A program made the position numbers and the translations under genes. Below the pieces are notes generated by a model. The model was not told the DNA's origin. It saw nothing but the letters and a program-made list of their open reading frames with translations, and did not search any database. A stretch of DNA of 64,000 bases from an uncultured Desulfobacula sp. (GTDB lineage Bacteria; Desulfobacterota; Desulfobacteria; Desulfobacterales; Desulfobacteraceae): positions 10,537 through 74,536 of the forward strand of contig CAZWSL010000013.1 in the NCBI GenBank assembly GCA_964636495.1, in the 5' to 3' direction. Position 1 is the stretch's first letter; each line of letters starts with the position of its first letter. Positions 7,311 through 36,974 of this stretch are shown piece after piece.

Positions 7311-7388
7311 TTTCTGTCTAACCTCTGGCTATTGTGTTCATGCTTCATTCTGTTCAATCGCATATCTGTTCCAACCGGATTTTATCAA

Positions 7389-8453: not shown

Positions 8454-8500
8454 GGTTTTTTAAATGTAGGCATGGAGTTATTCAACTCGATCTTACTCTG

Positions 8501-9304: not shown

Positions 9305-9394
9305 GTGTACTACCTTCTGTTTTTAATTCTTCTGCATTTTTCAGCTGATAAGCAGGTTTAATATTTTTACACGTATTGACGTTGTCTGCAGAAA

Positions 9395-14778: not shown

Positions 14779-15522
14779 ATGACAGATAATAATCAGTTTG
14801 ATATCTCCAGTGCGGACAGGTCGCTGAAGTCGAAAATGCTTGTTGATATGTTCAAAAGAGTTGTAGTCCATTACGGGCTGTGGTTCACTGAAATCAGGCA
14901 TCAGATGGGCATGGACAAAGCATTGGAAGTGCTTGAGAAAGCAACAGATAAAAGCCTTGCAATCGGGATGCAGAAAATTGCAGCTTCCTTGAATGTTGAG
15001 TTGGAAAACAATATCCCTAAAGCATTGATTGAAATGGAAGAAGAAAAACTTGATAACCTTATGGAAGCTGTGGCAAAAAGCTGGCTCGTCAATGATGGTG
15101 TGTGGTTCCAGTCTGTTGAATTTGACAATGGAATGAACGATGCCAAAAGATGCAATGATTCATGCTGGGCCCAATTTTCTCCCTATGAAGCGTTTGCCAT
15201 TAAAAATCTTTTAAAATTAGATGACAACTGCGGCCTTGAAGGGTTGAAAAAAGCGTTAAACTTCAGGATGTATTCAATGATTAATAAACAGTCCATTACT
15301 GAAGAGACAGAAAACAGCTTTGTCTTTCAAATGAATGACTGCAGAGTACAGTCTGCAAGAAAGAGAAAAAACCTGGATGACTATCCCTGTAAATCAGCAG
15401 GATTAGTTGAATATGAGTATTTTGCAAGATCCATTGACAAAAGAATTAAAACTCAATGTATTGGATGTCCGCCGGATGACCATCCTGAGGAGTGGTTCTG
15501 CGCATGGAAATTTGAAATTTAG
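14779..15522 (+). CDS. Uncharacterised cytosolic protein with a conserved Cys / PPD-x-HP C-terminal motif (paralog of 55489-55995)
   Basis: No TM segment or signal peptide. The C-terminal half aligns by eye with the ORF at 55489-55995, including ...C-x3-Q...YxCK...C-x2-PPDxHPxxxFCxWxF at the C-terminus. Confidence 0.6.
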   Translation: MTDNNQFDISSADRSLKSKMLVDMFKRVVVHYGLWFTEIRHQMGMDKALEVLEKATDKSLAIGMQKIAASLNVELENNIPKALIEMEEEKLDNLMEAVAKSWLVNDGVWFQSVEFDNGMNDAKRCNDSCWAQFSPYEAFAIKNLLKLDDNCGLEGLKKALNFRMYSMINKQSITEETENSFVFQMNDCRVQSARKRKNLDDYPCKSAGLVEYEYFARSIDKRIKTQCIGCPPDDHPEEWFCAWKFEI

Positions 15523-15596
15523 CATGTTTTGAGCTGCAACAGATATAGGTATGAATAAAATAACCAAAATAAAGAAATATAAGAAAGGTTGTAAAT

Positions 15597-17150
15597 ATGG
15601 GAGCTACATCAGATAATATTCAGGAATTTTTGGAAAAGGAGAAACAGATCAAGGGCATGGGCGGTGAGAAAGCCCTTGCAAAAAGAAGAGAGCAGGGCAA
15701 GCTCAATGCCAGGGAAAGGCTTGATATTCTGTTTGACAAAGGCACATTTCGAGAGCTGGATATGTTTGTTACACACAGGTGCAGTAACTTTGGCATGGAA
15801 AATATCGAGATTCCGGCAGACGGAGTTGTGACAGGCCACGGCAGAGTTGATGGCCGGGTTGTTTTTGCATATGCACAGGATTTTACTGCAAGGGCGGGCT
15901 CCCTTGGAGAGATGCAGGCAAAAAAAATCTGTAAGATAATGGATATGGCCTTAAAATCAGGAGCTCCCATTATTGGCATGAATGATTCAGGTGGAGCGCG
16001 GATACAGGAAGGTATTGATGCTCTTTCAGGATATGGTGAAATCTTTTTTAGAAATTCAGCAGCATCTGGTGTTATTCCGCAGATCTCAGCAATTATGGGT
16101 CCAACAGCAGGCGGCGCTGTTTACTCTCCTGCCATGACTGATTTTGTTTTCATGGTTAAAGAAAAAAGTTATATGTTTATTACAGGGCCAAACGTCATCA
16201 AAGCGGTTACCGGTGAAGAAATCACCTTTGAAGACCTTGGCGGAGCCATGGTACATAACGAGAAGTCAGGAGTTGCACAGTTTGCATGTGACTCTGATGA
16301 AGATGCAATATTACAGATTAAAAAACTGCTCTCCTATGTTCCATCCAACAACATGGAAGATCCGCCATTTATACCTCCTGAAGATGATCCAGGCCGGGTT
16401 GATGAATCATTGAATTCTATTATACCGGACAATCCAAACAGGGCTTATGATATGAAAACCGTTATTAAATCCATTGTGGACGACGGTACTTTTTTTGAGC
16501 CCCATGAATATTTTGCAAAAAATATTGTGATCTGCTTTGCAAGGCTGAACGGCCGGTCAATAGGAATCATTGCAAATCAGCCCAATTTCCTTGCAGGATG
16601 TCTTGATATTGATGCATCTGACAAAGCGACAAGATTCATCAGATTCTGTGATGCTTTTAATATTCCGATGCTTACCATTGCTGATGTCCCAGGCTACCTG
16701 CCGGGAAGTAATCAGGAGTGGGGAGGCATTATCCGTCACGGAGCAAAACTTTTATGGTGTTATTCAGAGGCAACCGTACCTAAACTCCTGCTTGTGACAA
16801 GAAAGAATTATGGCGGTTCATATCTTGCCATGTGTTCAAAACACCTTGGTGCAGATATGGCCTTTGCATGGCCAAGTGCTGAAATTGCAGTAATGGGTGC
16901 AGCCGGTGCTGCTAATATTATTCATGCCAGGGAGATAAATAATTCAGAAGATCCTGCACAAAAACGAAAAGAGAAAATAGATGAGTATAATGAAAAATTT
17001 TCCAACCCGTACTGTGCAGCTGCAAGGGGATATGTGGATGCTGTCATTGTACCGTCCGAGACAAGGCCGAGGCTTATTGACGCCCTTGAGGCAATTTCAA
17101 CAAAAAGAGAGTTAAGACCTGCTAAAAAACATGGGAATATACCGGTATAA
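15597..17150 (+). CDS. Methylmalonyl-CoA carboxyltransferase (12S subunit) / propionyl-CoA carboxylase beta-type
   Basis: Carboxyl_trans family: KLNARERLDILFDKGTFRE, GMNDSGGARIQEG, IMGPTAGGAVYSPA and RKNYGGSYLAM. Confidence 0.9.
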   Translation: MGATSDNIQEFLEKEKQIKGMGGEKALAKRREQGKLNARERLDILFDKGTFRELDMFVTHRCSNFGMENIEIPADGVVTGHGRVDGRVVFAYAQDFTARAGSLGEMQAKKICKIMDMALKSGAPIIGMNDSGGARIQEGIDALSGYGEIFFRNSAASGVIPQISAIMGPTAGGAVYSPAMTDFVFMVKEKSYMFITGPNVIKAVTGEEITFEDLGGAMVHNEKSGVAQFACDSDEDAILQIKKLLSYVPSNNMEDPPFIPPEDDPGRVDESLNSIIPDNPNRAYDMKTVIKSIVDDGTFFEPHEYFAKNIVICFARLNGRSIGIIANQPNFLAGCLDIDASDKATRFIRFCDAFNIPMLTIADVPGYLPGSNQEWGGIIRHGAKLLWCYSEATVPKLLLVTRKNYGGSYLAMCSKHLGADMAFAWPSAEIAVMGAAGAANIIHAREINNSEDPAQKRKEKIDEYNEKFSNPYCAAARGYVDAVIVPSETRPRLIDALEAISTKRELRPAKKHGNIPV

Positions 17151-17160
17151 AGGAAGAAAA

Positions 17161-17382
17161 ATGGATAAAAAAAAACTTTCGGCAGCAATGTCTGCAGTAT
17201 TTGCTTATATCAAAACATCTGAAGAGGCTGCAGCTTTTAACGCTGCTCAATCTTTGGAGCCTGTGGAAGAAGTTGAATCTCATATGCATAGAATCATGCA
17301 GCCAGGTAATATATGGGGGATTTCAGGACGTCAGGCGCATATGCAGAGCAATACAATGATGCAGATGAGAGTGTTTAAATAA
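17161..17382 (+). CDS. Small hypothetical protein encoded between the carboxyltransferase and the 5S/BCCP gene
   Basis: 73-aa ORF (MDKKKLSAAMSAVFAYIK...) with an AGGAAG-like RBS, lying tightly between two transcarboxylase genes. It has no TM segment, so it is not an OadG-type membrane anchor. Confidence 0.5.
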   Translation: MDKKKLSAAMSAVFAYIKTSEEAAAFNAAQSLEPVEEVESHMHRIMQPGNIWGISGRQAHMQSNTMMQMRVFK

Positions 17383-17418
17383 AAAGCTGTTAATAATAAA
17401 ATAATCAGGAGAAAATCA

Positions 17419-19440
17419 ATGAGTGAACATAATCAGGTAAAAAAAGTTGAAATGAATTATGCCAAAGACAGACCTAAAGCAGAAAATCCGCTGCTGGTTG
17501 AAGATATTTCACTTCGGGACGGGCACCAGTCTCTTTTTGCAACAAGGGGAAGAACAGAAGATATGATTCCGGTTGCAGAAAAAATGGATGAGATCGGTTT
17601 CTGGGCTGCAGAGGTGTGGGGTGGTGCAACTTTTGATGCCATGCACAGATTTCTTGGTGAAGATCCATGGGAAAGGCTTAGAACCCTTAAAAGATATTTC
17701 AAGAAGACAAAACTGTCTATGCTGCTGCGTGGACAGAATCTTGTAGGATATAGAAACTATGCAGATGATGTGGCAAAACTGTTTGTCAAAAAAACCGTTG
17801 ATAATGGAATGGATATCTTCAGAACATTTGATGCTTTAAACGATTATCGCAATTTTGAAACTGTTGTACCTGTTATTAAAGAGTGCGGTGCCCATTTCCA
17901 GGGCTGCATCTGCTATACTCTGACCGAACCCAGACTTGGCGGTGATGTTTATAATATTGACTACTATATCCAAAAGGCAAAAGATCTTGAAGATATGGGA
18001 GCTGACAGCATCTGTGTGAAGGATATGGCAGGACTCTTGGCACCGTATGATGCCTATGAACTTGTAAAAGCCTTGAAGGAGAATGTCAAACCATTGATTC
18101 ATCTCCACAGTCATTTTACTTCTGGCATGTCTTCTCTGACCCATTTAAAAGCCATTGAAGCAGGTGTTGATATTATTGATACCTGTATGACTCCCTATGC
18201 ATACAGGACCTCCCATGCAGCACTGGAACCCTTTGTAATGACACTTCTTGGAACAAACAGGGATACGGGTTTTGATATACATGCCCTTGCTGAAATTAAT
18301 GAGATTTTTGAAAAAGATGTTATGCCCAAGTACAAACACCTGCTTGATGACAGCAAAATTTCTATTATTGATATCAATGTTCTTTTACACCAGACACCGG
18401 GCGGCATGCTGTCAAATCTGGTCAATCAGCTGAAAGAGATGGATGCTCTTGACAAAATTGATGAAGTTTACAAACAGCTTCCAAAGGTGAGAAAAGAGCT
18501 TGGTCAGATTCCACTGGTCACTCCGACAAGCCAGATTGTTGGGACACAGACTGTTAATAATGTCCTTTTTGATACACCTGATGATCGATACAAAATGATA
18601 ACAGCCCAGGTAAAAGATCTCTGTTACGGATTATATGGAAAAACAAGCGTACCCATAGACAGTGATGTACAGAAAAAAGCGCTCAAAGGATATGACAGAG
18701 GTGAAGAGCCAATTACATGCCGGCCTGCCGCAGTTCTGCAGCCGGAACTTGAAAAAGCTGCTCAAGAGATTGGAGATCTTGCCATCGATGATGAAGATCT
18801 TATTGTTTATGCTCTATTTCCTGTTACTGGTAAAAAATATCTGATGCAGAAATATGGTAAGGAGCAGGTGCCGGAAAGCTTAAGACCCATTACCCTTGAT
18901 GATGTTGAAAAACAGGATCAGATGATTGAAAAAGCCAGAAAAGGTGAACTGGTAGAAAAAACCAGTCTGGAAACTGCCCCTGAAAAAAGTGAGAATTCAA
19001 GAACATTTAACGTTTTTGTCGATGGTGAATATTTTGAAGTCGGTGTTGATGAGGTGGGGGGCAGTCCTGTTATTACTTATGCAGCACCCCAGGCTGCACC
19101 GCCGGCACCGGCACAGGCTCCTGTCCAGCCAGCACCGGCAGCAGCTTCTCCAGCCCCTGCACCGGAAAAACCAGAGAAAGAGCCGGAACCTGCTCCAGAA
19201 CCGGTACCAGAGCCTGTTTCTTCATCTGGAACTTCTGTTTCAGCTCCCATGCCAGGCATGGTCATAAAATATGAAAAAAATGTTGGTGATCCGATTAATG
19301 AGGGTGAAACCATTGTTGTCATAGAAGCGATGAAAATGGAAAATGCGCTTCCTTCACCGGCAAGCGGTGTTGTAAAAGCTATAAATTTCAAGAGCGGAGA
19401 TTCAGTTGCTAAAGGAGAAACACTTGCTGTAATCGAATAG
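17419..19440 (+). CDS. Transcarboxylase 5S subunit (oxaloacetate decarboxylase alpha / PycB-like) fused to a biotin carboxyl carrier domain
   Basis: HMGL-like TIM barrel (LRDGHQS, FRTFDALND, HLHSHFTSG), a Pro/Ala-rich linker (about 19080-19230) and a C-terminal biotinyl domain with the EAMKMEN motif. Confidence 0.9.
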   Translation: MSEHNQVKKVEMNYAKDRPKAENPLLVEDISLRDGHQSLFATRGRTEDMIPVAEKMDEIGFWAAEVWGGATFDAMHRFLGEDPWERLRTLKRYFKKTKLSMLLRGQNLVGYRNYADDVAKLFVKKTVDNGMDIFRTFDALNDYRNFETVVPVIKECGAHFQGCICYTLTEPRLGGDVYNIDYYIQKAKDLEDMGADSICVKDMAGLLAPYDAYELVKALKENVKPLIHLHSHFTSGMSSLTHLKAIEAGVDIIDTCMTPYAYRTSHAALEPFVMTLLGTNRDTGFDIHALAEINEIFEKDVMPKYKHLLDDSKISIIDINVLLHQTPGGMLSNLVNQLKEMDALDKIDEVYKQLPKVRKELGQIPLVTPTSQIVGTQTVNNVLFDTPDDRYKMITAQVKDLCYGLYGKTSVPIDSDVQKKALKGYDRGEEPITCRPAAVLQPELEKAAQEIGDLAIDDEDLIVYALFPVTGKKYLMQKYGKEQVPESLRPITLDDVEKQDQMIEKARKGELVEKTSLETAPEKSENSRTFNVFVDGEYFEVGVDEVGGSPVITYAAPQAAPPAPAQAPVQPAPAAASPAPAPEKPEKEPEPAPEPVPEPVSSSGTSVSAPMPGMVIKYEKNVGDPINEGETIVVIEAMKMENALPSPASGVVKAINFKSGDSVAKGETLAVIE

Positions 19441-20928: not shown

Positions 20929-22102
<1,174 letters not shown>

Positions 22103-22113
<11 letters not shown>

Positions 22114-22771
22114 GGATCATCCCGTCCTCCATTCTGACATAGCCTTTGCACAGCCTTGCAATGGTCATATCATGGGTGATGACAAAAATGGTAGTTCCAT
22201 CTTCATGGTTCAGGCGAATAAATAGTTCCATGATCTCCTGTCCTACCTGGTTATCCAGGGCTCCTGTGGGTTCGTCTGCCAGAATGATGGATGGCTGTCC
22301 CACAAGTGCCCGGGCAATGGCCACTCTCTGCTGTTGACCACCGGACAATTCCGTTGGCCTGTGGTCTGACCGATCCAGCATTCCAACTTTGTCAAGAACA
22401 TTTTGTGCTGCCTTTTGGCGATCCATTTTTGGAATGCCCCTGTACACCAGGGGGAGAGCTACATTTTGCAAGGCTGTCAGCCTGGAGAGAAGGTTGAACT
22501 GCTGAAAGACAAATCCGATTTTTTTGTTCCGGATTTCAGAAAGGGTATTGTCGCTCAGGTCGGCCACCCGTTTGCTGTCCAGGTAGTAGGAACCTGCAGT
22601 GGGAGTATCCAGAAGGCCGATGATATTCATGAGGGTGGATTTCCCACAACCCGACTGACCGACAATGGATAAAAGATCTCCGCTGTTAATGGTCAGGGTG
22701 GCCCCTTTAAGTACTTCCACTTTCACCGGGCCCATGTGGTAAGATTTATATATTTTGTTCAGTTCAATCAT
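22103..22771 (-). CDS. ABC transporter ATP-binding protein, MacB/DevA/LolD type
   Basis: Walker A GQSGCGKST, signature LSGGQQQRVAIARAL, Walker B ILADEPTGALD. Confidence 0.93.
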
Positions 22772-22801: not shown

Positions 22802-24565
22802 TTACTCATCGGTTCCCGGCATGAAATATACCCGGTCTCCTCGCTCCAGTCCTTTCAGGATTTCCACTGCATTCAATGTGGTTATACCAGTGGTAACCTC
22901 GACTTGTCTTATTTTGATGCCCTCCATGATCTTTACCCATTTTTTATTGTCCCTTATCTCCACGGCTGCCAGGGGAATCATTAATGCTTTTGGGTTGTCA
23001 TAGACAACAATTTCAAGATTTGTGGACATGCCCAGGCGGATCTTTTTCTGCTGCTCCTGGGTCAGACGGTCAATGGCTACCCCCACGGCGAACATGGGCC
23101 TTTCCCCGTCCTTGGATACAGCATTGGAGGCTATATGGCGGACATTACCGGTCAGGGAAAGATCTGCAAAGGCATCCCCTGACACATTGACCTTCTGGCC
23201 AAACCGGATTTTGCCAATATCGATCTCATCCACCCTGGCTTTGATTGAAAAACCGTCCAGATTACCGATACTTATGAGAACATCTCCCTGTGAGACTGAC
23301 ATTCCAGGTTCCACATCTTTAAATTCTTTGTCTCCATCCCGGCCTTTGGATCGTTTTATGATGATGCCGGATACCGGAGCATGAATCGTGGACAGATCCA
23401 GTTTTTTCTGGAGATCTTCAAGATTTGTTCTGGCATTGGCAAGTTCCATCCTGGCAATATCCAGATTCTCCTTGCTTGCCTGATAGAGTATCGAGTCCAA
23501 TGCCTCCTTTGATGCGATTAAATCGAGCTGCTGATTGGTGTACTCAGATTGAGCGGATTGAAACTCAGACCTGGAAACAATCCCCTTTTCAAACAGAATC
23601 CGGCTCTCTTCAAGTTTTCTTTTGGAGGAATCCAGGCTGTTGCCTGCTTTTGTAAAGGAGCGCTTTGCAGTTGAAACTTCTGAACTTTTTTCCCAATCCA
23701 TGAGCTGTTTGAAATTCTGTTCAGCCTTGATGTATGAAGCCTTAGCCTCTCTGAAACTTACCATAAGTTTGTCCGTATCCATGGCAATCAGCCGATCTCC
23801 CTTATCTGCCTTTTCATCATAAACAAAAAATATTTCCCTGATTTTGCCGTCAAAAGGAGCCATAATATAAATTTCTTCCAATGGAGCTACAAAACCGGAA
23901 AGGGAAACAGAGGATGTTAGAGGCTTAACCATGACCTCGGCAGCTCTCATGCCGGCTCTCTGTTCTTCTTGTTTCTCCCTTAAAAACATTGTGCCGGATA
24001 AGACATCCTGGTTCCATAGATAATAACCTGTTCCTGAAAATCCCAGAATCACAATAAAGGTAATAAAGAGTTTGATCCATTGCACTTTTTTCAAAGCTGA
24101 TTCCAGTTGTTTATTTGTTTCTTCTGCCTTGATAAAAGCCTTTCTGAGCTGGAGATTCAGGGCTTTTTCCTTTTCACGGCTTTTGGTGATTTCCGTAATG
24201 TCATTGAATACAACCACCACCCCTGCATCCCTGCCAGCATCATCAGCACCTGCCTTTAAATAGGAAGTTGCCACGGATAATACCCTTGAACTGCCATCTT
24301 TCAGGATATAATCTACTGTAGAGGTCTTGCCTACCCCGGCATCATAGACTGCATCCAGGATAGTCTGGCAAAAAAGATCGTTGCCTTCCATCTCCACCAT
24401 AAAAACCTGGCCAAAGGGCTTGTCCCTGACCGTATCCGCTTTCATTCCCAATATCTGTGCAGCCGGATTGTTGAATAAGGTGACAATGCCCTGGGGATCC
24501 AGTGCCATCACCCCTTCATTCATACTTTCTATGATACGCTGGTTAAAGGCTATTGTTCCGGCCAT
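22802..24565 (-). CDS. Membrane-fusion (HlyD/MacA/DevB-family) periplasmic adaptor with an N-terminal cytoplasmic PAS domain
   Basis: Residues about 1-125 look like a PAS fold (IIESMNEGVMALDPQGIVTLFNNPAAQILG ... VVVFNDITE). A coiled segment follows, then one TM (WIKLFITFIVILGFSGTGYYLW, residues about 163-184), then lipoyl / alpha-hairpin / beta-barrel MFP domains. It overlaps the TolC gene by 16 nt. Confidence 0.85.
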   Translation of the reverse strand: MAGTIAFNQRIIESMNEGVMALDPQGIVTLFNNPAAQILGMKADTVRDKPFGQVFMVEMEGNDLFCQTILDAVYDAGVGKTSTVDYILKDGSSRVLSVATSYLKAGADDAGRDAGVVVVFNDITEITKSREKEKALNLQLRKAFIKAEETNKQLESALKKVQWIKLFITFIVILGFSGTGYYLWNQDVLSGTMFLREKQEEQRAGMRAAEVMVKPLTSSVSLSGFVAPLEEIYIMAPFDGKIREIFFVYDEKADKGDRLIAMDTDKLMVSFREAKASYIKAEQNFKQLMDWEKSSEVSTAKRSFTKAGNSLDSSKRKLEESRILFEKGIVSRSEFQSAQSEYTNQQLDLIASKEALDSILYQASKENLDIARMELANARTNLEDLQKKLDLSTIHAPVSGIIIKRSKGRDGDKEFKDVEPGMSVSQGDVLISIGNLDGFSIKARVDEIDIGKIRFGQKVNVSGDAFADLSLTGNVRHIASNAVSKDGERPMFAVGVAIDRLTQEQQKKIRLGMSTNLEIVVYDNPKALMIPLAAVEIRDNKKWVKIMEGIKIRQVEVTTGITTLNAVEILKGLERGDRVYFMPGTDE

Positions 24566-26088
24566 TTGTCGTATTCCTTATTATAGTCTATTTTCCAGGT
24601 ATCAAGGGTGGTACCTATAATCGTATCCAGGGAAGTCAGTGCGTTGAGATAGGCAATTTTTGCGTTAAGTTCATTATTCAGGATGTCAACCAATTCATTT
24701 TGAAAAGAGAGAACTTGAAAATTGGTTGTTCGCCCAACTGTCAGTTTTTCTTTTTCTACAGCCAGTTTTTTTTTTGACAGGATCCTGGAGCGTTCAGCCA
24801 TGCGAACCTGCTTAAGCCGGGTTTCCACTTCACGAACCGCATCGCTGACCTCCAGTTCAATGTTCTGTTCAATCTCTTCTTTGGAAATTTTAGCCTGCTT
24901 CAAGGCTGTTGTTGCTGCAATCAAGCTTTGTTCCCGTGTCAAATCTCCGTACAGTGGAATACGAAGATTAAGTCCCACCTGCCAGGATTCGGAATTTGTA
25001 TTATTTTCAAACCGCTGATTTTTGTCTGCAGCTGAATATCTGCCCACAAAATCAAGATTCCATTTCATATTATCCCGGGCCAGGATCACTGATATTTCAG
25101 CCTTTTTCAGGTCCATAACTGCATTGAGGTAGTCAGCTCTGTTTTTGAATGCCATTTTCAGACAATTTTCCAGATCTGGATGCACCGCAGAGAGATCAGT
25201 TTCTTCAATGGGACGTATCCGGGTATTTCTATCAAGATCCAGAATCTTAAGCAGTTGGATCCTGGCATTATCTAGGCCGTTGAGCGCAGTTTCATAGGAA
25301 AATTCCTGATTAGCCAGATCTGATTCATTCTGGATGATTTCGTTGGCCGGCATACGCCCCATGGAAATGAGAAGTTTGTTAACCTCCATGTTAGCTTTTG
25401 ACTGCTCTACGGACATCCTTATGATATCAAGCTGACGAACGGTCTGTGCATAATTCCTAAAGGCCTGAATTGTCTCATTTACCACTGAAATTATTGTGTC
25501 GCGCATACTCAGCAGACTGGATTGTTCCCTCATCCGGGCCAGGGTTACGGATGCAGTATTCACATTAATGCCAAAACCTTTGAGCAGGGGCTGGGTGAAA
25601 TCTATTTGCCAGGTATTGTCTCTGGTCCACTCTTCAAAGGTGGTATTGGTATCTGAAAACTGATCAGATCTGTTCCAGGAAAAGGTGAACGCTCCGCCGG
25701 TTTTGACAGGTTTTACCACTTCTATACTTGAGTTAATACTCCTGTCCGTAGTTGTGGTTCTGTCTTCCCCGCCTTTGGTCCGGGTCTTTGAACCTGACAT
25801 GGCCGGACTTGAGTTTAAGGTTATATCAGTATTGAATTTATCTTCAGCCACATTGAGATCAAATTTCTCAACTACCCGGTTCAGGTAGGCACTCTTTACT
25901 GTCCTGTTTGAACGAAGCGCAACAGTGATAGCCTCTGGCAGGGTAAGTTCCATGGAAGGTGTCTGGGTTCCAGGGAAGTAAGCGGTATTGGCAGTGACAG
26001 CCAAAATTGGGAGAGGCCTGGCTGACTGTATCAGCACGGTTAAAAACAGTAAGCCACAATAAAGCAAATACGATCTTGCGTTCTGCAT
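24550..26088 (-). CDS. TolC-family outer membrane efflux protein
   Basis: Signal peptide followed by two OEP repeats with long coiled regions. It is the first gene of the TolC-MFP-ATPase-permease operon. Confidence 0.9.
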   Translation of the reverse strand: MQNARSYLLYCGLLFLTVLIQSARPLPILAVTANTAYFPGTQTPSMELTLPEAITVALRSNRTVKSAYLNRVVEKFDLNVAEDKFNTDITLNSSPAMSGSKTRTKGGEDRTTTTDRSINSSIEVVKPVKTGGAFTFSWNRSDQFSDTNTTFEEWTRDNTWQIDFTQPLLKGFGINVNTASVTLARMREQSSLLSMRDTIISVVNETIQAFRNYAQTVRQLDIIRMSVEQSKANMEVNKLLISMGRMPANEIIQNESDLANQEFSYETALNGLDNARIQLLKILDLDRNTRIRPIEETDLSAVHPDLENCLKMAFKNRADYLNAVMDLKKAEISVILARDNMKWNLDFVGRYSAADKNQRFENNTNSESWQVGLNLRIPLYGDLTREQSLIAATTALKQAKISKEEIEQNIELEVSDAVREVETRLKQVRMAERSRILSKKKLAVEKEKLTVGRTTNFQVLSFQNELVDILNNELNAKIAYLNALTSLDTIIGTTLDTWKIDYNKEYDKWPEQ

Positions 26089-26279: not shown

Positions 26280-26669
26280 TCAGCCGCCGCCGCTGTTTTC
26301 ATCTTTTGTCCGGTCAAACATGTCATAGCATTTGACATGCTTCCACTTGTTACCTTGTTTTTCTTCGCACTTGTGAATAGTCAGGCGTGGTTTGTAGTCA
26401 GCCTTTTTTTGTCTTTTGCTGCTAAAATATTTTCTTACATTGGTTCCATCATTGCTATTCACTAATACCCGGATCTTGTGATTTTTCAGATTCTTCAGTC
26501 CGATACATCCTGTTGACATCCCTCCCCAACTAGATTTACACTCCAAAAACCAGCCATTGTCTTTCCATTCACATCCTCTGCCCGCATTGCACTGGGCAGT
26601 CAACAAAAAGAAACATGCAGAAAATGCAAAAACAGAAACAATTTTTTTGTAAAACCTTTTTATTTTCAT
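26280..26669 (-). CDS. Small secreted (or lipo-) Cys-rich, Lys-rich protein of unknown function
   Basis: N-terminal signal sequence MKIKRFYKKIVSVFAFSACFFLLTAQCNA, read either as a possible lipobox FSAC or as SPase I cleavage after CNA. The mature part has 5 Cys, is very basic and ends in GGG. I recognise no family. Confidence 0.6.
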   Translation of the reverse strand: MKIKRFYKKIVSVFAFSACFFLLTAQCNAGRGCEWKDNGWFLECKSSWGGMSTGCIGLKNLKNHKIRVLVNSNDGTNVRKYFSSKRQKKADYKPRLTIHKCEEKQGNKWKHVKCYDMFDRTKDENSGGG

Positions 26670-26824
26670 AATATTACCTCATCATAATAGGCATAAATGC
26701 TTTTCTGCCTTTTGTCAATAAATAGAAAAGAGTTTTTTATAGTTGTTTGAGCTTTTTCTTACAAAGAGTGAATCGTTGATGAAGAGCCTGCCGGTAACAC
26801 CGGCCTGCCGCGGGTTGCAGATAT

Positions 26825-26852
26825 AAACCCACCGGTTGATGCCGGTGGGTTT
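26825..26852 (-). terminator. Hairpin terminator downstream of dctM
   Basis: aaacccaccgg-ttgatg-ccggtgggttt is an 11-bp perfect GC-rich stem starting 10 nt after the dctM stop, followed on the minus strand by TTTAT. Confidence 0.55.
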
Positions 26853-26861
26853 ATGGTCTTT

Positions 26862-28154
26862 TTAAACCATCATATTTGCTAAGAACAGAGAAATCGGCGG
26901 GAATGTTACAATAAGAGTTAACCGCACAATATCCGCTATCCAGAAGGGTGTTACACCCTTAAAGATAGTACTGACTTTTACATCGGGTAAAACCGCTTTC
27001 AGTACAAAAACATTTAATCCTACCGGCGGCGTGATCAAACTGATTTCAGTCACGACAACCACTACGATTCCAAACCAGATAAGATCAAACCCAAGAGCCT
27101 GTATCATGGGATAAAAGACAGGAACCGTTAAGACAATCATTGACATGCTTTCCAGAATACATCCCAGAATAACATAAATAAACATGAGAATGAGAATGAC
27201 AACAAAAGGTGAAACATTCCAGCTCAGTACGAAGTCAGCCAGTGCATCCGGCATTCCAACCACATTTACAAAGTTGGCAAAAATCATTGAACCAATCAGC
27301 AGAAAAAAGATCATGGCTGTTGTGCTGGCAGAATCAACCAGTACTTTTTTTAATACTTCCAGAGTCAGTTTTTTACGAAACAGAGTAAAGAAAAATGCGC
27401 CGATTGATCCAATGCCTGCAGCTTCAGTGGGTGTAAAAATTCCTGCATAAATTCCGCCCATTACAATAAAAAACAGCAATAATACACCCCAGACGCCTTT
27501 AAGACTTCTTAATCGCTCAGGCCAGGAAACTTTTTCCCCTCTGGGGCCAATTTTCGGGTTAATGCTCGTTGCCGCAGCAACGGCGCATAAGTAGCAGAAA
27601 ACCCCGAGAAGGCCGGGTAAAACACCTGCAGCAAACAGCTGTCCAATATCAGTTTCAGTCATAAGTCCGTAAATGACCAGAATAACACTTGGAGGGATAA
27701 GAATACCAAGTGTTCCACCTGCAGCAATAGAACCGGTTGCCAGACTGTCAGCATAGCCGAATTTGCGCATGGAAGGCATGGCAACCTTGCTCATGGTGGC
27801 TGCCGTAGCCAGAGAACTGCCACATACTGCGGAAAAACCACCGCAGGCAACAATTGTTGCCATGGCCAAGCCCCCCTTCCTGTGCCCTAAAAAAGCATAG
27901 GAAGATCTATAAAGCTCATGGGAAAGACCGGATTGAGTGACGAAATTACCCATTAAAATAAAAAGTGGTACGACGGATAACCCGTAATTCATTCCCTCTT
28001 CAGAGGCGACCTGGGCAACCATGGCTAAAGAAGCATGGTAGTTAATAGCCTCTCCGAATCCTATAAATCCAACAACTGCCATGGCCATGGGAATGGGCAC
28101 TTTTGCAAGAATTAAAATGAGAAGAAATGCAAATCCAATAAGCGATGCTTCCAT
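26862..28154 (-). CDS. dctM: TRAP transporter large permease
   Basis: 430-aa polytopic membrane protein of typical DctM length and composition, directly after dctQ. Confidence 0.93.
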   Translation of the reverse strand: MEASLIGFAFLLILILAKVPIPMAMAVVGFIGFGEAINYHASLAMVAQVASEEGMNYGLSVVPLFILMGNFVTQSGLSHELYRSSYAFLGHRKGGLAMATIVACGGFSAVCGSSLATAATMSKVAMPSMRKFGYADSLATGSIAAGGTLGILIPPSVILVIYGLMTETDIGQLFAAGVLPGLLGVFCYLCAVAAATSINPKIGPRGEKVSWPERLRSLKGVWGVLLLFFIVMGGIYAGIFTPTEAAGIGSIGAFFFTLFRKKLTLEVLKKVLVDSASTTAMIFFLLIGSMIFANFVNVVGMPDALADFVLSWNVSPFVVILILMFIYVILGCILESMSMIVLTVPVFYPMIQALGFDLIWFGIVVVVVTEISLITPPVGLNVFVLKAVLPDVKVSTIFKGVTPFWIADIVRLTLIVTFPPISLFLANMMV

Positions 28155-28158
28155 TAAT

Positions 28159-28671
28159 TTATTTTTCCATTTTTAGCGAATTTATCATAATAAAAAATAA
28201 AATCAGGCCTGAAATACCCACCATGATTGACATGAAATGAATCAATGGTGCAAGCGGTATAAACAAATACTCAGTCCTGTCCCCATATTCTGCAGCATCT
28301 TTGGCTTTTATCCACAACTGCCAGCTGATAACAACCATGACAGACAGATTAATCAGATTAATGATAATTTTTTGAATCTGTTTAATCTTATCAGGTATAA
28401 AGTTATCAAGCAGATCAACTGTTACATGGCCTTCCTGGGAGGTCAGAAGAACCAGGCCCAGAAAAATTACAATTGCCATTGAAAACTCTGTCAGTTCAAG
28501 TGCGCCAACAATGGGGGAATTAAAGACATAGCGCATGATAACATCGGCAAATGTTAACGCCATCATAAAAAACAGTGCAATTGATACACAAGGTTGGAAA
28601 AGCCGGTGCAGGAAATTTAAAAACAGATTCCAGGCACCGACTTGAGTGTCATTTTTTTCAGATTCAACCAT
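28159..28671 (-). CDS. dctQ: TRAP transporter small permease
   Basis: 170-aa protein with 4 TM segments lying between dctP and dctM. Confidence 0.85.
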   Translation of the reverse strand: MVESEKNDTQVGAWNLFLNFLHRLFQPCVSIALFFMMALTFADVIMRYVFNSPIVGALELTEFSMAIVIFLGLVLLTSQEGHVTVDLLDNFIPDKIKQIQKIIINLINLSVMVVISWQLWIKAKDAAEYGDRTEYLFIPLAPLIHFMSIMVGISGLILFFIMINSLKMEK

Positions 28672-28673
28672 TT

Positions 28674-29696
28674 TTATTTATATGCTTTTACTGTAGCTCT
28701 AAAGAATTTCAATGCCTCTGCACCGTCTACACCTTTGGCATTTGCTCTTTTTACCCAGTCTGCCTCCAAGTGCTGAGTGGCTTTCTTAATCTCTGCGATG
28801 AACTCAGGAGTGGCAGTTTCAATTTTATTGCCGTTTTCTTTTATGGCTGCCAGCCCTACCTTATCTGCTTCATCCCATGCTTTACCTGCAAGCTTTGCAA
28901 ATGCTTCACCAGATACATTCATAACTGCTTTCTGGTCTTTGGTTGAGAAGCCGTTAAAAGTCTTTTTATTCATGACCAGATAAAAAGAGACATTATAAAG
29001 TCCGTCGGGTATTGTTGTTGTATATGGAACCACCTTGGTAATTTTAAATGATTTAATTGATTCTAAGGGAAGAACAACACCATCTGCCACCCCGCGGGAT
29101 AGAAGCTCATAAATTTGACTGGCCGGTTTTTGAATTCCAACGATGCCAAGGCTTTTAGCAACCTGTGCTGCAATTCCGCCAGGAACCCTGAATTTCATTC
29201 CTTTAAGGTCAGCAATAGACTGGGCAACCTTTTTTGAATTATGAAGTGCTCCCGGTCCATGGGTCATAACACCCATCAATTTAGTACCTTTATACTCGTC
29301 AGCTTTGGCAAAATATTTCTGATAGGTTCTCCAATAAGCAACACTGGTTGCTTCTGCGCTGTTTCCCAAGAAGGGGAGTTCCACACCTTCAGAGAGTGTA
29401 AACCTACCTGGTGAATAAGCGTTACATGTATAGCCTACATCAGCCATACCGTTTTTTACTATATCAAAGTATGCTTTAGGATGGCCCAGCCCTTTTGCCA
29501 GAAGCTTGATATCGACCCTTCCCTCTGTTGCTTCTTTAACATTTTCCATCCAGGGGACCATCATATTTGCGACAATGGGATGCCCCGGTGGCAGCCAGGA
29601 AGAGAAGTTTAACTGTTTTGCCATTACATTTGTTGACATGATTGACATTAGCAAAAACACACTTGCGATAATAAATGCTACTCTCAATTTTTTCAT
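28674..29696 (-). CDS. dctP: TRAP transporter substrate-binding protein (DctP family)
   Basis: Signal peptide MKKLRVAFIIASVFLLMSIMSTNVMA and a DctP-type periplasmic domain. The start is set at the ATG at 29696 after GGAGG. Confidence 0.9.
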   Translation of the reverse strand: MKKLRVAFIIASVFLLMSIMSTNVMAKQLNFSSWLPPGHPIVANMMVPWMENVKEATEGRVDIKLLAKGLGHPKAYFDIVKNGMADVGYTCNAYSPGRFTLSEGVELPFLGNSAEATSVAYWRTYQKYFAKADEYKGTKLMGVMTHGPGALHNSKKVAQSIADLKGMKFRVPGGIAAQVAKSLGIVGIQKPASQIYELLSRGVADGVVLPLESIKSFKITKVVPYTTTIPDGLYNVSFYLVMNKKTFNGFSTKDQKAVMNVSGEAFAKLAGKAWDEADKVGLAAIKENGNKIETATPEFIAEIKKATQHLEADWVKRANAKGVDGAEALKFFRATVKAYK

Positions 29697-29866
29697 GGAA
29701 CATCCTCCTAAATTAATAATTATAAAATACATGAGACACTTTTTATAAGCTGTCTTCATCAACAACCTTTATAGATCAATGTTCTATAGCTTACCTTATA
29801 GTAAATTAAATTACCATATAAAAATATAAGCTACATTACAGCCATAATATAAGTCAAGACAAAAAA

Positions 29867-33000: not shown

Positions 33001-34356
33001 TCATAAGAGTAGATGTTTATATTGCTCTTTAATTAAAGGCAACAGCTCTTTTAACGTATCATCAATTTTTTCAATTAAAAAGTCTATATCACTCTTTTTC
33101 ATTGCACAGGAGAGAATAAAAAGTCCTCTTGGTATGCTGAAAACATCTCTGTTCAACAATGAGAGGTGCATCAAAGCATGAAGTTTTTCCTCTGACTTAA
33201 GAACCTGCTCTGCAGTCGTGATCGGTTCATTGAAAAAATGCAGATTTATAAGAGAACCAATATGGTTGGATTGAAGTTTTAATCCATTGTCCTTAAAACT
33301 TTTCAACAGACCTTTCTGCAGTTGATCTCCGAGTGAGTTAATAAATTCTATGGCATTTTCATCGTATTTTGACAGGGCTGCATAACCAGCCTGCATCAAT
33401 GTTTCATACCCGTTAAAAGTTCCTGAATGATATAAAGGCGTATCTGTCTGTTCATGACAGAAAATATCCATGATCTCTTTTTTACCGCCAAACACCCCAA
33501 TGGGGAGGCCTCCTCCTATAACCTTGCCAACTGTTGTCAGATCAGGTGTAACACTGAAATATTTCTGGCACCCGCCAATATTTACCCGGTAAGAGAAGAT
33601 CTCATCAAAAATCAGGAGAACACCATTCTCATCAGTTACTTTTCTCACATGCTCCAGATATCCTTTTGCAGGTAAAACAACGCCTCCGGCTCCAAGAAAC
33701 GGTTCCATGATTACTGCTGCAAGTTCTGAAGCATTCTCTTTTACACTTTTCTCAAGTGCCTCAAAATCATTAAAAGGTACTTCAAGCATATCTTCTGTCA
33801 TCCCTTTAGGGATTCCTGCAGTAATTACATTTTTTTTTGTGGATGCAGCAACACAGTCATGGGTGCCATGGAAGCCTCCTGACATTTTCAGGATCTTATC
33901 TTTACCTGTATACGTTCTGGCTGTCCTCAACGCAAACATCGTGGCTTCAGTGCCTGAATTTACAAACCTGATTTTCTCAAATCCCGGTATTCTCTGGCAG
34001 AGTAATTTTGCAAGTTTGAACTGGCCGTCCGTGGGGGTGGAATACTGGGAACCCTTTTCTATGCCTTCCTGCACAGCCTTGACAATATCGGCATCACCAT
34101 GTCCGTGAACAATGGCGCCATAGGCATTTGTCACATCAAGAAGTCTGTGTCCCTCATGGGTTTTGACAAATGCTCCACTGCCGGATTCAATGTGAATGGG
34201 ATAGGGTTTAAAATAACTTAAACTCCTTGTTGCACCACCCGGAATATAGTTTATAAGTTTTTCATGATGTACTTTTGAAACATGGTATTTCTCCATGTAA
34301 GTATCTGTAATCTGTTTTTCAATCTGCTCTTCTATTCCTGTCTGTTTTTCAGTCAT
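33001..34356 (-). CDS. Class III (fold type I) PLP aminotransferase, glutamate-1-semialdehyde-aminomutase-like; candidate beta-amino acid transaminase
   Basis: FVNSGTEATMFALRTAR, DEIFSYR and GKVIGGGLPIGVFGG (PLP Lys) are present. The N-terminal IPGGATRS and SGGFHG differ from the HemL motifs PGGVNSPVRAF and EGCYHG. Confidence 0.85.
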   Translation of the reverse strand: MTEKQTGIEEQIEKQITDTYMEKYHVSKVHHEKLINYIPGGATRSLSYFKPYPIHIESGSGAFVKTHEGHRLLDVTNAYGAIVHGHGDADIVKAVQEGIEKGSQYSTPTDGQFKLAKLLCQRIPGFEKIRFVNSGTEATMFALRTARTYTGKDKILKMSGGFHGTHDCVAASTKKNVITAGIPKGMTEDMLEVPFNDFEALEKSVKENASELAAVIMEPFLGAGGVVLPAKGYLEHVRKVTDENGVLLIFDEIFSYRVNIGGCQKYFSVTPDLTTVGKVIGGGLPIGVFGGKKEIMDIFCHEQTDTPLYHSGTFNGYETLMQAGYAALSKYDENAIEFINSLGDQLQKGLLKSFKDNGLKLQSNHIGSLINLHFFNEPITTAEQVLKSEEKLHALMHLSLLNRDVFSIPRGLFILSCAMKKSDIDFLIEKIDDTLKELLPLIKEQYKHLLL

Positions 34357-34489: not shown

Positions 34490-36115
34490 CTATTTCTCTT
34501 TTTCATGAACAATCAAAAGTTCTCCAACTTCTTCTTCTATTTTTTCAACAAATTCACCAGACTCAATTCTTGTTTTTAAATCTTCCAGATCATCAATATA
34601 TACTTTGTCCTTGTTCATGTAATCAAGGGTTTCACGAACTGCTTTGTGCATGATCTTGCCTGCTGGACTGAGTCTTTCAATACCTCTCTGATCTGCTGCC
34701 TGGGCAGCACATAGCAGTTCAAAAGCAAGGATGTGATTTGTATTCTCAACAATTTTTCTTGTTTTTCTGCCGGCAATTAAACCAAAACTGACAATATCCT
34801 GGAAATCAGCAGTTGATGTTATGGACTGTATAGAGGCTGGGACTGCAAGAGTCCGGTTTTCAGCAACCAGTGATGTTGTCATGAACTGGCCTCCCATAAG
34901 CCCCATCCTGACACCTGTATCTTCCTTGCAGAGGAATGGCGGCAGTCCGGTGCTGTGGTGTTCATCCATGAATCTGTCAATTCTTCTGTCACTAACAACG
35001 CCTATGTTGACCATGGATATTCCAAGGCAGTCCATTGCAAAAGAGATCGGCTGGCCATGGAAATGACCGTTATGGAAGAACGTATCCAGTTCAGTAAAAA
35101 TCAAAGGGTTGTCATTACTTGAGTTTAGTTCCCGCAAAAGGACATCCTGAGCATTTTTCAGGGAGTCTTTTGTGGGGCCTACAAACTGGGGTGTGCAGCG
35201 GATCGAGTAAGCATCTTCCACTGGAATATGCGCAACAGATACACCTTTGTGCTGCTGCAGGGTTGACTGAAGTTTGGTTGAAAGCTCGAGTTCATCAATG
35301 GCTAAATTGCTGCCCTTGAGAAGTTTTGTAAGGTTCATGGCAGTTGCAAATTGTCCTGGATGGTATTTCTGTTCGTGGACTATCGGGTCAAAGGGATTAA
35401 ATCTTCCCATAAGGGTTTCAATAGCAAATGCAGCAATTATATCTGAGTTTTTCAAAGTGTTTTCTGCCTCTGAAATAACGGTGCAGGCAAGGCCCACCAT
35501 TCCTGAAGTTCCATTAATCAGTGAGAGCCCCTCTTTTGCATTCAGATGCATCAGTTTGATTCCAGCAGCCTCCATAGCTTCTTTTCCTGGTAACACTTTT
35601 CCTTCAAATCTTGCTTTCCACTCTCCAAAGGCAACACTTGCAATGCAGCCGAGCGGTCCAAGGTCTCCGCTTGTACCAAGTGAGCCCTTTCTCGGCACAA
35701 CGGGAAACACTTTTTTATTAATCATTTCAAGATAGATTTTCAGGTTTTCCTCTTTAATCCCTGAGAAGCCACGGCAGAGAGAATTGGCCCTTGCAATCAT
35801 GAATGTTCTTACAAGTGTATCTTCAAATGGTTTGCCAACCTGGGTTGTAATGCTTCTTACCAGATTTTTCTGAAAATCATTATCCCTCTCTTTTGGCAAG
35901 AGATAATCAACAAGACCTCCGCAACTTGTGTTCACACCATAGATACAACGCTCTTCATTTGCCCACTTATCCACAAGTTCTCTGCACTCACGAATTTTAG
36001 GCCAGTTTTTTTCGTCTATTTCGACTTGGATGGATGTATCTTGACCCGCTTTTATCAGCTCTTCAATTGTTAATGAAAATCCATCAATAGTTAATGTATT
36101 GTCTTTTATCGGCAT
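34490..36115 (-). CDS. MIO-dependent aromatic amino acid ammonia-lyase / 2,3-aminomutase family enzyme (HAL/PAL/TAL/PAM/TAM superfamily)
   Basis: GSLGTSGDLGPLG carries a TSG triad where the MIO-forming ASG normally sits. LINGTS, DAYSIRCTPQ, SNDNPL, GHFHGQP and a strong AAGGAGG RBS are also present. Canonical TGFG is replaced by TSCGG, and the HAL SH pair by SI. Confidence 0.88.
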   Translation of the reverse strand: MPIKDNTLTIDGFSLTIEELIKAGQDTSIQVEIDEKNWPKIRECRELVDKWANEERCIYGVNTSCGGLVDYLLPKERDNDFQKNLVRSITTQVGKPFEDTLVRTFMIARANSLCRGFSGIKEENLKIYLEMINKKVFPVVPRKGSLGTSGDLGPLGCIASVAFGEWKARFEGKVLPGKEAMEAAGIKLMHLNAKEGLSLINGTSGMVGLACTVISEAENTLKNSDIIAAFAIETLMGRFNPFDPIVHEQKYHPGQFATAMNLTKLLKGSNLAIDELELSTKLQSTLQQHKGVSVAHIPVEDAYSIRCTPQFVGPTKDSLKNAQDVLLRELNSSNDNPLIFTELDTFFHNGHFHGQPISFAMDCLGISMVNIGVVSDRRIDRFMDEHHSTGLPPFLCKEDTGVRMGLMGGQFMTTSLVAENRTLAVPASIQSITSTADFQDIVSFGLIAGRKTRKIVENTNHILAFELLCAAQAADQRGIERLSPAGKIMHKAVRETLDYMNKDKVYIDDLEDLKTRIESGEFVEKIEEEVGELLIVHEKEK

Positions 36116-36341
36116 GACTCCTCCTTAAAAATAGCAGTTTAATAAATATCTCTCCTGACTTATCAATTGAGGATAGGCAAATGATCTGGTTTTTGTCAAG
36201 AAATAATTTTTATTTTATAAGGATTATCGTGAAAATATCATATTAATCGAAGTTGAATCTTTTGATTTTGGCTTATTTTATAAGCTTTTTTGTTATGTTT
36301 GCCTTAATTTTATAATATTTATCAAAAAGTGGTCTGTTTTT

Positions 36342-36974
36342 TTAAAAAGGGATTTCAAAAAAATAGTTTTTTAAATAGAGCTCTATTACATTTTCAAGAT
36401 TATCAAGAGATGCAGAATAAAAGTGATCGCAGTTTTTCAGTACTTCATATTGAGGTGTGATCTTCCATCTTTTTATATGATCCTGAATAAGAGAGGGAGG
36501 GGCAATCTCATCGCTGTCACCTGAAACAATAAGGCCTGTGTGAGGCATTGCTTTTATATCTTCAAAGCTTATAAATCCCACAGGTGGAGATATCATGATA
36601 TGATCGTCAATTTCATATCCCCCTTCAATGATCTTTGCATTTACCCTTGCACCAAAAGAGTAGCCGGCAAGACAGACTCTTTCATAACCCAGTCTGCTTT
36701 TTAAGAAAGAGAGTACTGCAAGAACATCATCCTGCTCTCCAACACCGTTATCAAACACACCGGTACTTTTCCCTGTTCCCCTGAAATTAAATTTCAGTGT
36801 GGTAAATCCTTTATTGAAAAATGCCCTTTCAATACTCATCACCACAGCGTTATTCATATCTCCTCCATAAAGGGGATGAGGATGGGTAATGGCTACAGCT
36901 TTTATCAATGAATTTTGGTTTAAGACTGCTTCAATCGTATTACTGCTGCAGTCAATTGTTATGTTGGAGTCCAT
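36342..36974 (-). CDS. Alpha/beta-fold hydrolase (small, 210 aa)
   Basis: ITHPHPLYGGDMNN, the nucleophile elbow GYSFGA and a C-terminal DH motif. Confidence 0.75.
   Translation of the reverse strand: MDSNITIDCSSNTIEAVLNQNSLIKAVAITHPHPLYGGDMNNAVVMSIERAFFNKGFTTLKFNFRGTGKSTGVFDNGVGEQDDVLAVLSFLKSRLGYERVCLAGYSFGARVNAKIIEGGYEIDDHIMISPPVGFISFEDIKAMPHTGLIVSGDSDEIAPPSLIQDHIKRWKITPQYEVLKNCDHFYSASLDNLENVIELYLKNYFFEIPF

Follow-up and report, generated by a model that had tools for sequence, protein, structure and literature searches.

An AdmH/EncP-lineage MIO enzyme heads a conserved, catabolic-looking operon in marine Desulfobacteraceae and may open a beta-phenylalanine route to benzoyl-CoA

A stretch of 64,000 nucleotides from an uncultured Desulfobacula sp. 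(assembly GCA_964636495.1, contig CAZWSL010000013.1, positions 10,537 to 74,536 of the forward strand; hereafter, the window) contains an open reading frame (ORF) at 34490-36115 on the minus strand, which encodes a 541-residue aromatic amino acid enzyme of the type dependent on 4-methylideneimidazole-5-one (MIO). Judged by its sequence, the protein is new to the AdmH/EncP lineage yet recognisably belongs to it. Its gene is the first of an operon conserved across the genera Desulfobacula, Desulfotignum and Desulfospira. On balance, and with modest confidence, we favour the reading that this is a phenylalanine-specific enzyme heading a catabolic operon in marine Desulfobacteraceae, whose products would convert L-phenylalanine through (S)-beta-phenylalanine and benzoylacetate to benzoyl-CoA.

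The Pfam family Lyase_aromatic (PF00221) matches the ORF end to end (profile positions 1-466 of 466, 523 bits). Furthermore, more than 100 homologs with 72-94% identity are found in Desulfobacula, Desulfotignum, Desulfospira and further Desulfobacteraceae genomes and metagenome-assembled genomes (MAGs), so the ORF is a real gene and no chance pattern. The ortholog of D. toluolica Tol2, with 85% identity, is named Pal (CCK79979). A strong match to a ribosome-binding site, AAGGAGGAG, is located at 36118-36126 (minus strand) and ends 3 nt 5' of the ATG at 36115; 5' of the operon, a sigma-70-like promoter match, TTGACA-18-TATCCT (36170-36199, minus strand), is a match to the consensus only.

The highest-scoring NCBIfam model was TIGR04475, the D-beta-phenylalanine-forming aminomutase AdmH, with 665 bits in relation to an equivalog cutoff of 800. 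The hutH model (TIGR01225) gave 462.5 bits, under its cutoff of 539.15, and the tyrosine 2,3-aminomutase model gave 447 bits, also under its equivalog cutoff. The closest PDB entry by sequence was 3UNV, the phenylalanine 2,3-aminomutase of Pantoea agglomerans (AdmH/PaPAM), with an E-value of 4e-142, followed by SgTAM, with histidine ammonia-lyase (HAL) well behind. In a MAFFT alignment of the protein with P. putida HAL (1GKM), SgTAM (2RJR) and PaPAM (3UNV), whose sequences were rebuilt from PDB alignments, identities were 45.6% with PaPAM, 38.5% with SgTAM and 34.5% with HAL. When 1.84 billion cluster representatives were searched exhaustively, none exceeded 46% identity along the entire protein; those closest to it were P0121 (46%, and 60% identical to PaPAM), P0122 (45%) and P0125 (38%). 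A neighbor-joining tree shows the clade of the query as sister to PaPAM plus P0121, with P0122 and then P0125 branching outside.

The tertiary structure was modeled with AlphaFold. An alignment of 64 sequences gave a model with a predicted local distance difference test score (pLDDT) of 96.4, with 94-95 in the inner loop (residues 51-80); a model from a nine-sequence alignment had a pLDDT of 48 and was discarded. Foldseek ranked 3UNV first (template modeling scores of 0.91/0.96, root-mean-square deviation (rmsd) of 1.5 A) and SgTAM second, with an rmsd of 1.7-1.8 A; both of these top fold matches are bacterial aminomutases. Lyase structures ranged between about 1.8 and 3.7 A, and P. putida HAL between 2.7 and 3.7 A. 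The active-site residues of the superfamily are present (T148-S149-G150, Y59, N201, Y303 and R306), and S149, G150, Y59, N201, Y303 and R306 are invariant in the 64-sequence alignment.

Four features had been singled out in the initial annotation of this gene, made from the sequence alone, and all of them were read back from the minus strand at exact coordinates: the MIO-forming triad Thr148-Ser149-Gly150 (TSG; 35666-35674), contained in GSLGTSGDLGPLG; the inner-loop segment YGVNTSCGG with the catalytic Tyr59 (35915-35941); Ile89 of LVRSITTQ at the substrate-selectivity position (35849-35851); and DFQD (34796-34807), in which Phe438 is common to PaPAM. The equivalence of the Ile with histidase His83 and of the Gln with Glu414, originally drawn by eye, is reproduced in the MAFFT alignment, where HAL LVLS-H-AAG is aligned with LVRS-I-TTQ and HAL NQ-E-D with DF-Q-D (Gln439). 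At position 89, SgTAM has His93 and PaPAM a Val. Of 120 close homologs, 116 have TSG as their triad, three ASG and one SSG; YGVNTSCGG is invariant in 119 of them, and either Ile or Val occupies the selectivity position. The homologs of the orthologous clade without TSG are P0119, P0120 (SSG) and two others. Since close orthologs carry ASG or SSG, the Thr of the triad is not functionally diagnostic.

The equivalent segments of PaPAM are YGVNTSMGG, LINAVATN, GLMGGQFMT, HNGHFHGQ and TGDFQD, and those of the query are YGVNTSCGG, LVRSITTQ, GLMGGQFMT, HNGHFHGQ and TADFQD, so the pocket segments GLMGGQFMT, HNGHFHGQ and DFQD are the same in both proteins. The initial annotation had mentioned TSG triads in some bacterial aminomutases such as the Pantoea enzyme. 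Entry 3UNV has a modified residue at the triad and its PDB sequence masks the triad letters; the plasmid-encoded AdmH ortholog of Vibrio coralliilyticus, 87% identical to PaPAM and located within a non-ribosomal peptide synthetase/polyketide synthase (NRPS/PKS) cluster, reads GSLGTSGDLGPLA (GTSGD), which bears this out, and its other motifs are YGVNTSMGG, LIHAVATN and TGDFQD. TSG is also found in P0121, P0122 and P0125. The motifs described as divergent are all present and are ordinary for this lineage, to judge by PaPAM and the Vibrio ortholog: TSG, the TS(M/C)GG loop and DFQD are inherited AdmH/EncP-lineage traits and no novelties. TSG is competent to form the MIO electrophile within the AdmH lineage, and its formation is predicted for this protein. 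The role of the selectivity position is established in the tyrosine ammonia-lyases, tyrosine aminomutases and HAL. Because this residue is hydrophobic and the pocket segments are identical to those of PaPAM, phenylalanine is the probable substrate, rather than tyrosine or histidine, and the assignment to a phenylalanine-type substrate class is well supported.

The MIO gene is followed 3', on the same strand and with short gaps, by its operon partners. The next gene (33001-34356, minus strand) encodes a class-III aminotransferase with the fold of glutamate-1-semialdehyde aminomutase (GSAM), proposed to be a beta-phenylalanine transaminase and 79% identical to Pat of Tol2 (CCK79980). [quoted passage not shown] The operon ends with a tripartite ATP-independent periplasmic (TRAP) transporter on the same strand (26862-29765), here called type A, formed by DctP (28674-29765), DctQ (28159-28671) and DctM (26862-28154). 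A palindrome with a 15-bp stem at 26822-26855, directly after the dctM stop codon, is the likely operon terminator.

Synteny was analyzed in 75 related loci. The transaminase gene is next after the MIO gene in all 63 loci with room for it, and BKACE, Lrp and the ligase are present in 54 of 56, 53 of 56 and 50 of 52 loci, respectively, with constant order and strand throughout. D. toluolica Tol2, a cultivated strain already studied by proteomics, carries the same operon. Two non-orthologous TRAP DctPQM systems fill the slot at the operon end: type A, shown by the window and found in eight of 46 loci, and type B, found in most loci and represented by DctPQM9 of Tol2. Comparison of the window (26862-29765) with loci L081 (16631-19741) and L052 (16719-19675) showed only 27-30% identity between the DctM subunits of the two systems, and the identification of the window transporter as DctPQM9 was rejected at 27-28% identity. 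Outside the clade, P0121 lies in a type II PKS cluster, P0125 is accompanied by ATP-grasp, carrier-protein and thioesterase genes, and AdmH belongs to the andrimid NRPS/PKS cluster. Since other TSG-type relatives are found in PKS/NRPS clusters, the catabolic-looking context is lineage-specific, and the operon context is new in relation to every characterised MIO aminomutase that we found.

Some loci depart from this arrangement. L065 (4050-5393), from a MAG binned as Halieaceae, keeps the MIO gene (77% identity), the transaminase and Lrp; a 447-residue PaaK/F390-synthetase-like ligase replaces both BKACE and the FadD-like ligase and is followed by genes similar to those of heme d1 biosynthesis. 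The gammaproteobacterial binning of this MAG may be wrong. The arrangement would agree with a beta-keto acid intermediate that is processed further by another route, as by the benzoylacetate-CoA ligase of Aromatoleum. L024 (13560-13929) is the sole Desulfobacula-type locus without BKACE, and the distance of only about 370 bp between Lrp and the ligase suggests a deletion. A 210-residue alpha/beta-hydrolase is encoded 5' of the MIO gene on the same strand (36342-36974); such a gene and pyrG are found near the operon in most loci at a variable distance (0.3-3 kb), probably outside the operon.

The transaminase was rejected as HemL, with 357 bits in relation to a cutoff of 527. PDB searches gave about equal scores against GSAMs (about 275 bits) and against MesAT and VpAT, two transaminases of beta-phenylalanine (about 249 bits). 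Its N-terminal motif, IPGGATRSLSY, resembles MPGGNTRSILF of MesAT and PGGNTR/PGGNSR of 6K8H and ForI, and this pattern, GG(N/A)TR-x-(L/I/V), is unlike that of HemL (PGGVNSPVRAF). In VpAT, Arg41 of the motif binds the carboxylate of the beta-amino acid, Val43 and Tyr76 contact the ring, and Glu75 also belongs to the motif (Crismaru et al., per PMC9850050).

The BKACE protein matches PF05853 over the whole profile (1-274 of 274, 292 bits) and PDB 3LOT with 296 bits. Both 3LOT and 3E02 share its HIH (residues 47-49) and VRVGLEDS; from what is known of Kce, we take these HxH and GLED motifs to be zinc ligands. Its score is under the cutoff of every characterised subfamily: 343 in relation to 430 bits for NF053538, 211 to 382 for Kce and 161 to 350 for the 3-oxoadipate subfamily. 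The nearest one, NF053538, is a 3,5-dioxohexanoate:acetyl-CoA acetone transferase. The generic BKACE reaction converts R-CO-CH2-COO- and acetyl-CoA into R-CO-SCoA and acetoacetate, and the acetoacetate must be removed by a ligase or by a CoA-transferase plus thiolase (PMC11961710). BKACE similarity alone was rejected as a predictor of the operon, since homologs 70-74% identical are found in unrelated contexts. The BKACE homolog P0360 and the SSG-bearing MIO homolog P0120 probably come from the same contig.

The operon ligase resembles FadD13, feruloyl-CoA and 4CL enzymes and has no equivalog match. As listed, its ORF starts at a TTG (31513) and encodes 548 residues; the Tol2 ortholog has 526 residues and aligns from about residue 23, which suggests a true start about 22 codons 3' of the TTG. 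The ligase was rejected as a conserved partner of MIO enzymes, as it is only 22-24% identical to the ligases beside P0121, P0122 and P0125.

The operon is linked to phenylalanine in D. toluolica Tol2. An exact-sequence look-up gave the names Pal (CCK79979), "Pat: predicted phenylalanine aminotransferase" (CCK79980), AsnC regulator (CCK79981), DUF849 (CCK79982) and DctP9/Q9/M9 (CCK79984-86). DctM9Q9P9 is the supposed phenylalanine/phenylacetate importer of Tol2, and IorA2B2 and AtoAD increase specifically on phenylalanine and phenylacetate; AtoAD was tentatively placed by the authors at the unresolved step from phenylglyoxylate to benzoyl-CoA (PMC5109826, a D. multivorans paper). In phenylalanine-grown Tol2, benzoyl-CoA is the dominant aromatic thioester, with 424 ng (PMC10107677).

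In the route that we propose, the TRAP system would import L-phenylalanine or a close aromatic acid, and the MIO enzyme, acting as a 2,3-aminomutase, would convert L-phenylalanine to (S)-beta-phenylalanine. The class-III transaminase would then form 3-oxo-3-phenylpropanoate (benzoylacetate), and BKACE would react it with acetyl-CoA to give benzoyl-CoA and acetoacetate. A CoA-transferase (AtoAD, for example) or a ligase would re-activate the acetoacetate, and thiolysis would then give acetyl-CoA. The operon would respond to an amino acid through the Lrp/AsnC protein. For the ligase, candidate roles are the salvage of cinnamate released by the mutase and the activation of benzoylacetate or of acetoacetate. 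Family placement, the match of the pocket to PaPAM, the synteny and the phenylalanine link in Tol2 are direct observations; that the MIO enzyme is a mutase and no lyase, what the transaminase and BKACE act on and which way the flux runs are inferred, with the gene context behind the choice of a mutase and of the BKACE substrate. This route gives a role to every enzyme gene of the conserved core except the ligase. Among the scanned ORFs of the window, that is 46 of the 57 of at least 110 residues, including all of at least 340 residues, profile searches detected no genes of the benzoyl-CoA pathway, thiolase or atoAD. The broader claim, that three enzymes of marine Desulfobacteraceae form a redox-neutral anaerobic route, not described before, that leads from L-phenylalanine to benzoyl-CoA, is plausible, although we rate it slightly short of probable. 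No account of a route from phenylalanine through beta-phenylalanine and benzoylacetate to BKACE was found in the literature searched, and the NetSyn preprint on BKACE mentions neither aminomutases nor phenylalanine.

Among characterised enzymes, the closest is AdmH/PaPAM (3UNV, TIGR04475, EC 5.4.3.11), which shares with the query the MIO fold, TSG, TS(M/C)GG, DFQD, GLMGGQFMT, HNGHFHGQ and a hydrophobic selectivity residue. The two proteins are only about 46% identical, the query has Cys for Met in the loop and Ile for Val at the selectivity position, and while AdmH supplies (S)-beta-phenylalanine to the andrimid NRPS/PKS line, the query gene heads an operon with transporter, regulator, transaminase and BKACE. 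EncP of Streptomyces maritimus (enterocin) belongs to the AdmH lineage, is phenylalanine-specific and is an example of a lyase within it; the closely related AdmH and EncP both show a temperature-dependent bifunctionality (PMC3903478). The EncP context is biosynthetic, however, with cinnamate going to a PKS starter unit, and there is neither a transaminase nor a BKACE partner.

The logic of the proposed route has a counterpart in lysine fermentation, in which an aminomutase is followed by a beta-keto acid and then by Kce. [quoted passage not shown] Lysine fermentation differs in that its aminomutase is a radical-SAM/B12 enzyme, the keto group is formed by a dehydrogenase and the substrate is aliphatic, and the operon BKACE stays well under the Kce cutoff. 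In the aerobic beta-phenylalanine degradation systems of VpAT (4AO9, Variovorax) and MesAT (2YKU, Mesorhizobium), acetophenone arises as the beta-keto acid decarboxylates without further enzymatic use. These enzymes share with the operon transaminase the GSAM-fold class III assignment and the GGxTR-x-hydrophobic motif, and the product would likewise be benzoylacetate (PMC9850050). The differences are that the operon encodes a BKACE next door, that the Glu of VpAT is Ala, and that the similarity to GSAMs is equally high. Finally, anaerobic ethylbenzene/acetophenone degradation by the benzoylacetate-CoA ligase Bal plus thiolase in the anaerobe Aromatoleum aromaticum has benzoylacetate as intermediate and benzoyl-CoA as product (PMC4729919 and PMC5214803). 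There, an ATP-spending ligation is followed by thiolysis, whereas the proposed route would transfer the benzoyl group directly to CoA through BKACE.

Several observations weigh against the proposed route. The MIO protein scores below the equivalog cutoff of TIGR04475 (665 in relation to 800), mutase and lyase are inseparable by sequence in the AdmH/EncP lineage, and P0121, although 60% identical to PaPAM, lies within a type II PKS cluster, which we take to resemble the enterocin cluster. The transaminase has Arg44, Leu46 and Tyr79 but Ala78 at the position of the VpAT Glu (in an alignment that included MesAT, not VpAT), and one true GSAM likewise has the motif Tyr. In unrelated contexts there are BKACE homologs with as little as 70-74% identity, we know of no BKACE for an aromatic beta-keto acid, and the operon ligase is FadD/4CL-like rather than acetoacetyl-CoA-synthetase-like. 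In Tol2, phenylacetyl-CoA amounts to 85 ng on phenylalanine in relation to 19 on toluene and 1 on fumarate (PMC10107677), and this rise in phenylalanine-grown cells indicates that a phenylpyruvate route is active at least in parallel. The Tol2 authors named the genes as lyase and phenylalanine aminotransferase and proposed a route from phenylalanine through phenylpyruvate to phenylacetyl-CoA (PMC5109826).

The name Pal leads to one different explanation, in which the MIO enzyme is a phenylalanine ammonia-lyase that releases trans-cinnamate and ammonia, the operon ligase forms cinnamoyl-CoA, and beta-oxidation enzymes encoded elsewhere yield benzoyl-CoA and acetyl-CoA. EncP shows that lyase activity occurs in the lineage (PMC3903478), feruloyl-CoA synthetase and 4-coumarate-CoA ligases are similar to the operon ligase (200-214 bits), MIO genes are paired with ligase genes beside P0122, P0121 and P0125, and D. 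multivorans degrades cinnamate by such a route. However, the neighboring ligases of those relatives are too distant (22-24% identity) for a conserved MIO-ligase pair, profile scans found no hydratase, dehydrogenase or thiolase in the operon, and L065 lacks the FadD-like ligase yet keeps the transaminase. Above all, a lyase leaves no role for the most tightly linked partners, the transaminase (63/63) and BKACE (54/56), and we regard it as unlikely. The names Pat and DctPQM9, the phenylpyruvate to phenylacetyl-CoA route of the Tol2 authors and the elevated phenylacetyl-CoA of phenylalanine-grown cells would agree with a mixed locus for phenylalanine entry. In such a locus, Pat would convert alpha-phenylalanine to phenylpyruvate for Ior and phenylacetyl-CoA, the MIO enzyme would provide a second entry in parallel or a minor one, and BKACE and the ligase would serve another substrate. 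A class-III D-phenylglycine aminotransferase, which acts on an alpha-amino acid, is indeed among the PDB matches of the transaminase, but the protein falls in the GSAM/beta-transaminase group with the MesAT-type N-terminal Arg motif, and alpha-aromatic transaminases normally belong to class I/II. That five genes keep strict synteny in three genera also argues for a single pathway, and a mixed locus seems quite improbable.

A 2,3-aminomutase for tyrosine or another aromatic amino acid, feeding BKACE to give 4-hydroxybenzoyl-CoA, would agree with SgTAM as second-best neighbor by structure and sequence, and Desulfobacula reportedly degrades 4-hydroxylated aromatics. Nevertheless, the phenol-binding His of SgTAM (His93) is Ile or Val in the clade, and SgTAM GAQYPA, whose Tyr is presumably Tyr415, reads GGQFMT, identical to PaPAM, which makes this reading highly improbable. 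The last alternative, a histidine ammonia-lyase, has general hutH homology in its favor (462 bits) and the names given by JGI and some MAG annotations. The initial annotation had expected automated pipelines to use this name; some sources do give "histidine ammonia-lyase (HutH)", while others give "aromatic amino acid lyase", "phenylalanine aminomutase (D-beta-phenylalanine forming)" or "Pal: predicted phenylalanine ammonia-lyase". It had also judged HutH unlikely for want of hutU or hutI nearby, and in the 64-kb window no scanned ORF matched the Pfam urocanase or imidazolonepropionase families. With a score under the cutoff (462 in relation to 539 bits), Ile and Gln in place of His83 and Glu414, no hut neighbors and HAL structures farther from the model than the aminomutases, HutH was rejected and is effectively refuted.

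The remaining scanned ORFs of the window belong to housekeeping functions, efflux and menaquinone. A 129-residue ORF (26280-26669), located between the terminator of the operon and the genes for efflux, has a signal-peptide-like N-terminus and several Cys residues, and matches no Pfam family. The efflux genes encode a HlyD-type membrane-fusion protein with an N-terminal PAS domain, which looked unusual there (22802-24565), adjoining genes for MacB-like ABC efflux (20929-22771) and for an outer-membrane factor (24550-26088). At 14779-19440, a DUF6125 protein is encoded directly 5' of a carboxyltransferase and a PYC_OADA/biotinyl subunit, a set that together looks transcarboxylase-like. A cluster similar to the futalosine route of menaquinone biosynthesis (5881-10501) contains two VitK2_biosynth, two radical-SAM CofH/MqnC-type and one PNP_UDP_1 nucleosidase genes.

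Known MIO aminomutases provide beta-amino acids for natural products. If the proposed route is true, a MIO aminomutase would have a catabolic role for the first time, and the BKACE family its first aromatic substrate. The route would account for the DUF849 gene, so far unassigned, offer a role to the phenylalanine-induced AtoAD of D. toluolica and let phenylalanine bypass the unclear step from phenylglyoxylate to benzoyl-CoA. Functions would be assigned to three genes whose names we judge wrong or uninformative ("HutH"/"Pal", "GSA aminomutase"/"Pat" and "DUF849"/"3-keto-5-aminohexanoate cleavage protein") and which occur in more than 100 genomes and MAGs. Furthermore, the operon would offer a mesophilic set for biocatalysis: a mutase forming (S)-beta-phenylalanine, a beta-transaminase and a BKACE. 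The recruitment of such an enzyme into a conserved, catabolic-looking operon of abundant marine sulfate reducers is more interesting than the enzyme alone, since a catabolic aminomutase combined with BKACE would be a new peripheral pathway in anaerobic aromatic metabolism. No ATP would be needed when a CoA-transferase re-activates the acetoacetate; the route would thus be cheaper in ATP than the phenylacetate route, which would matter for energy-limited sulfate reducers.

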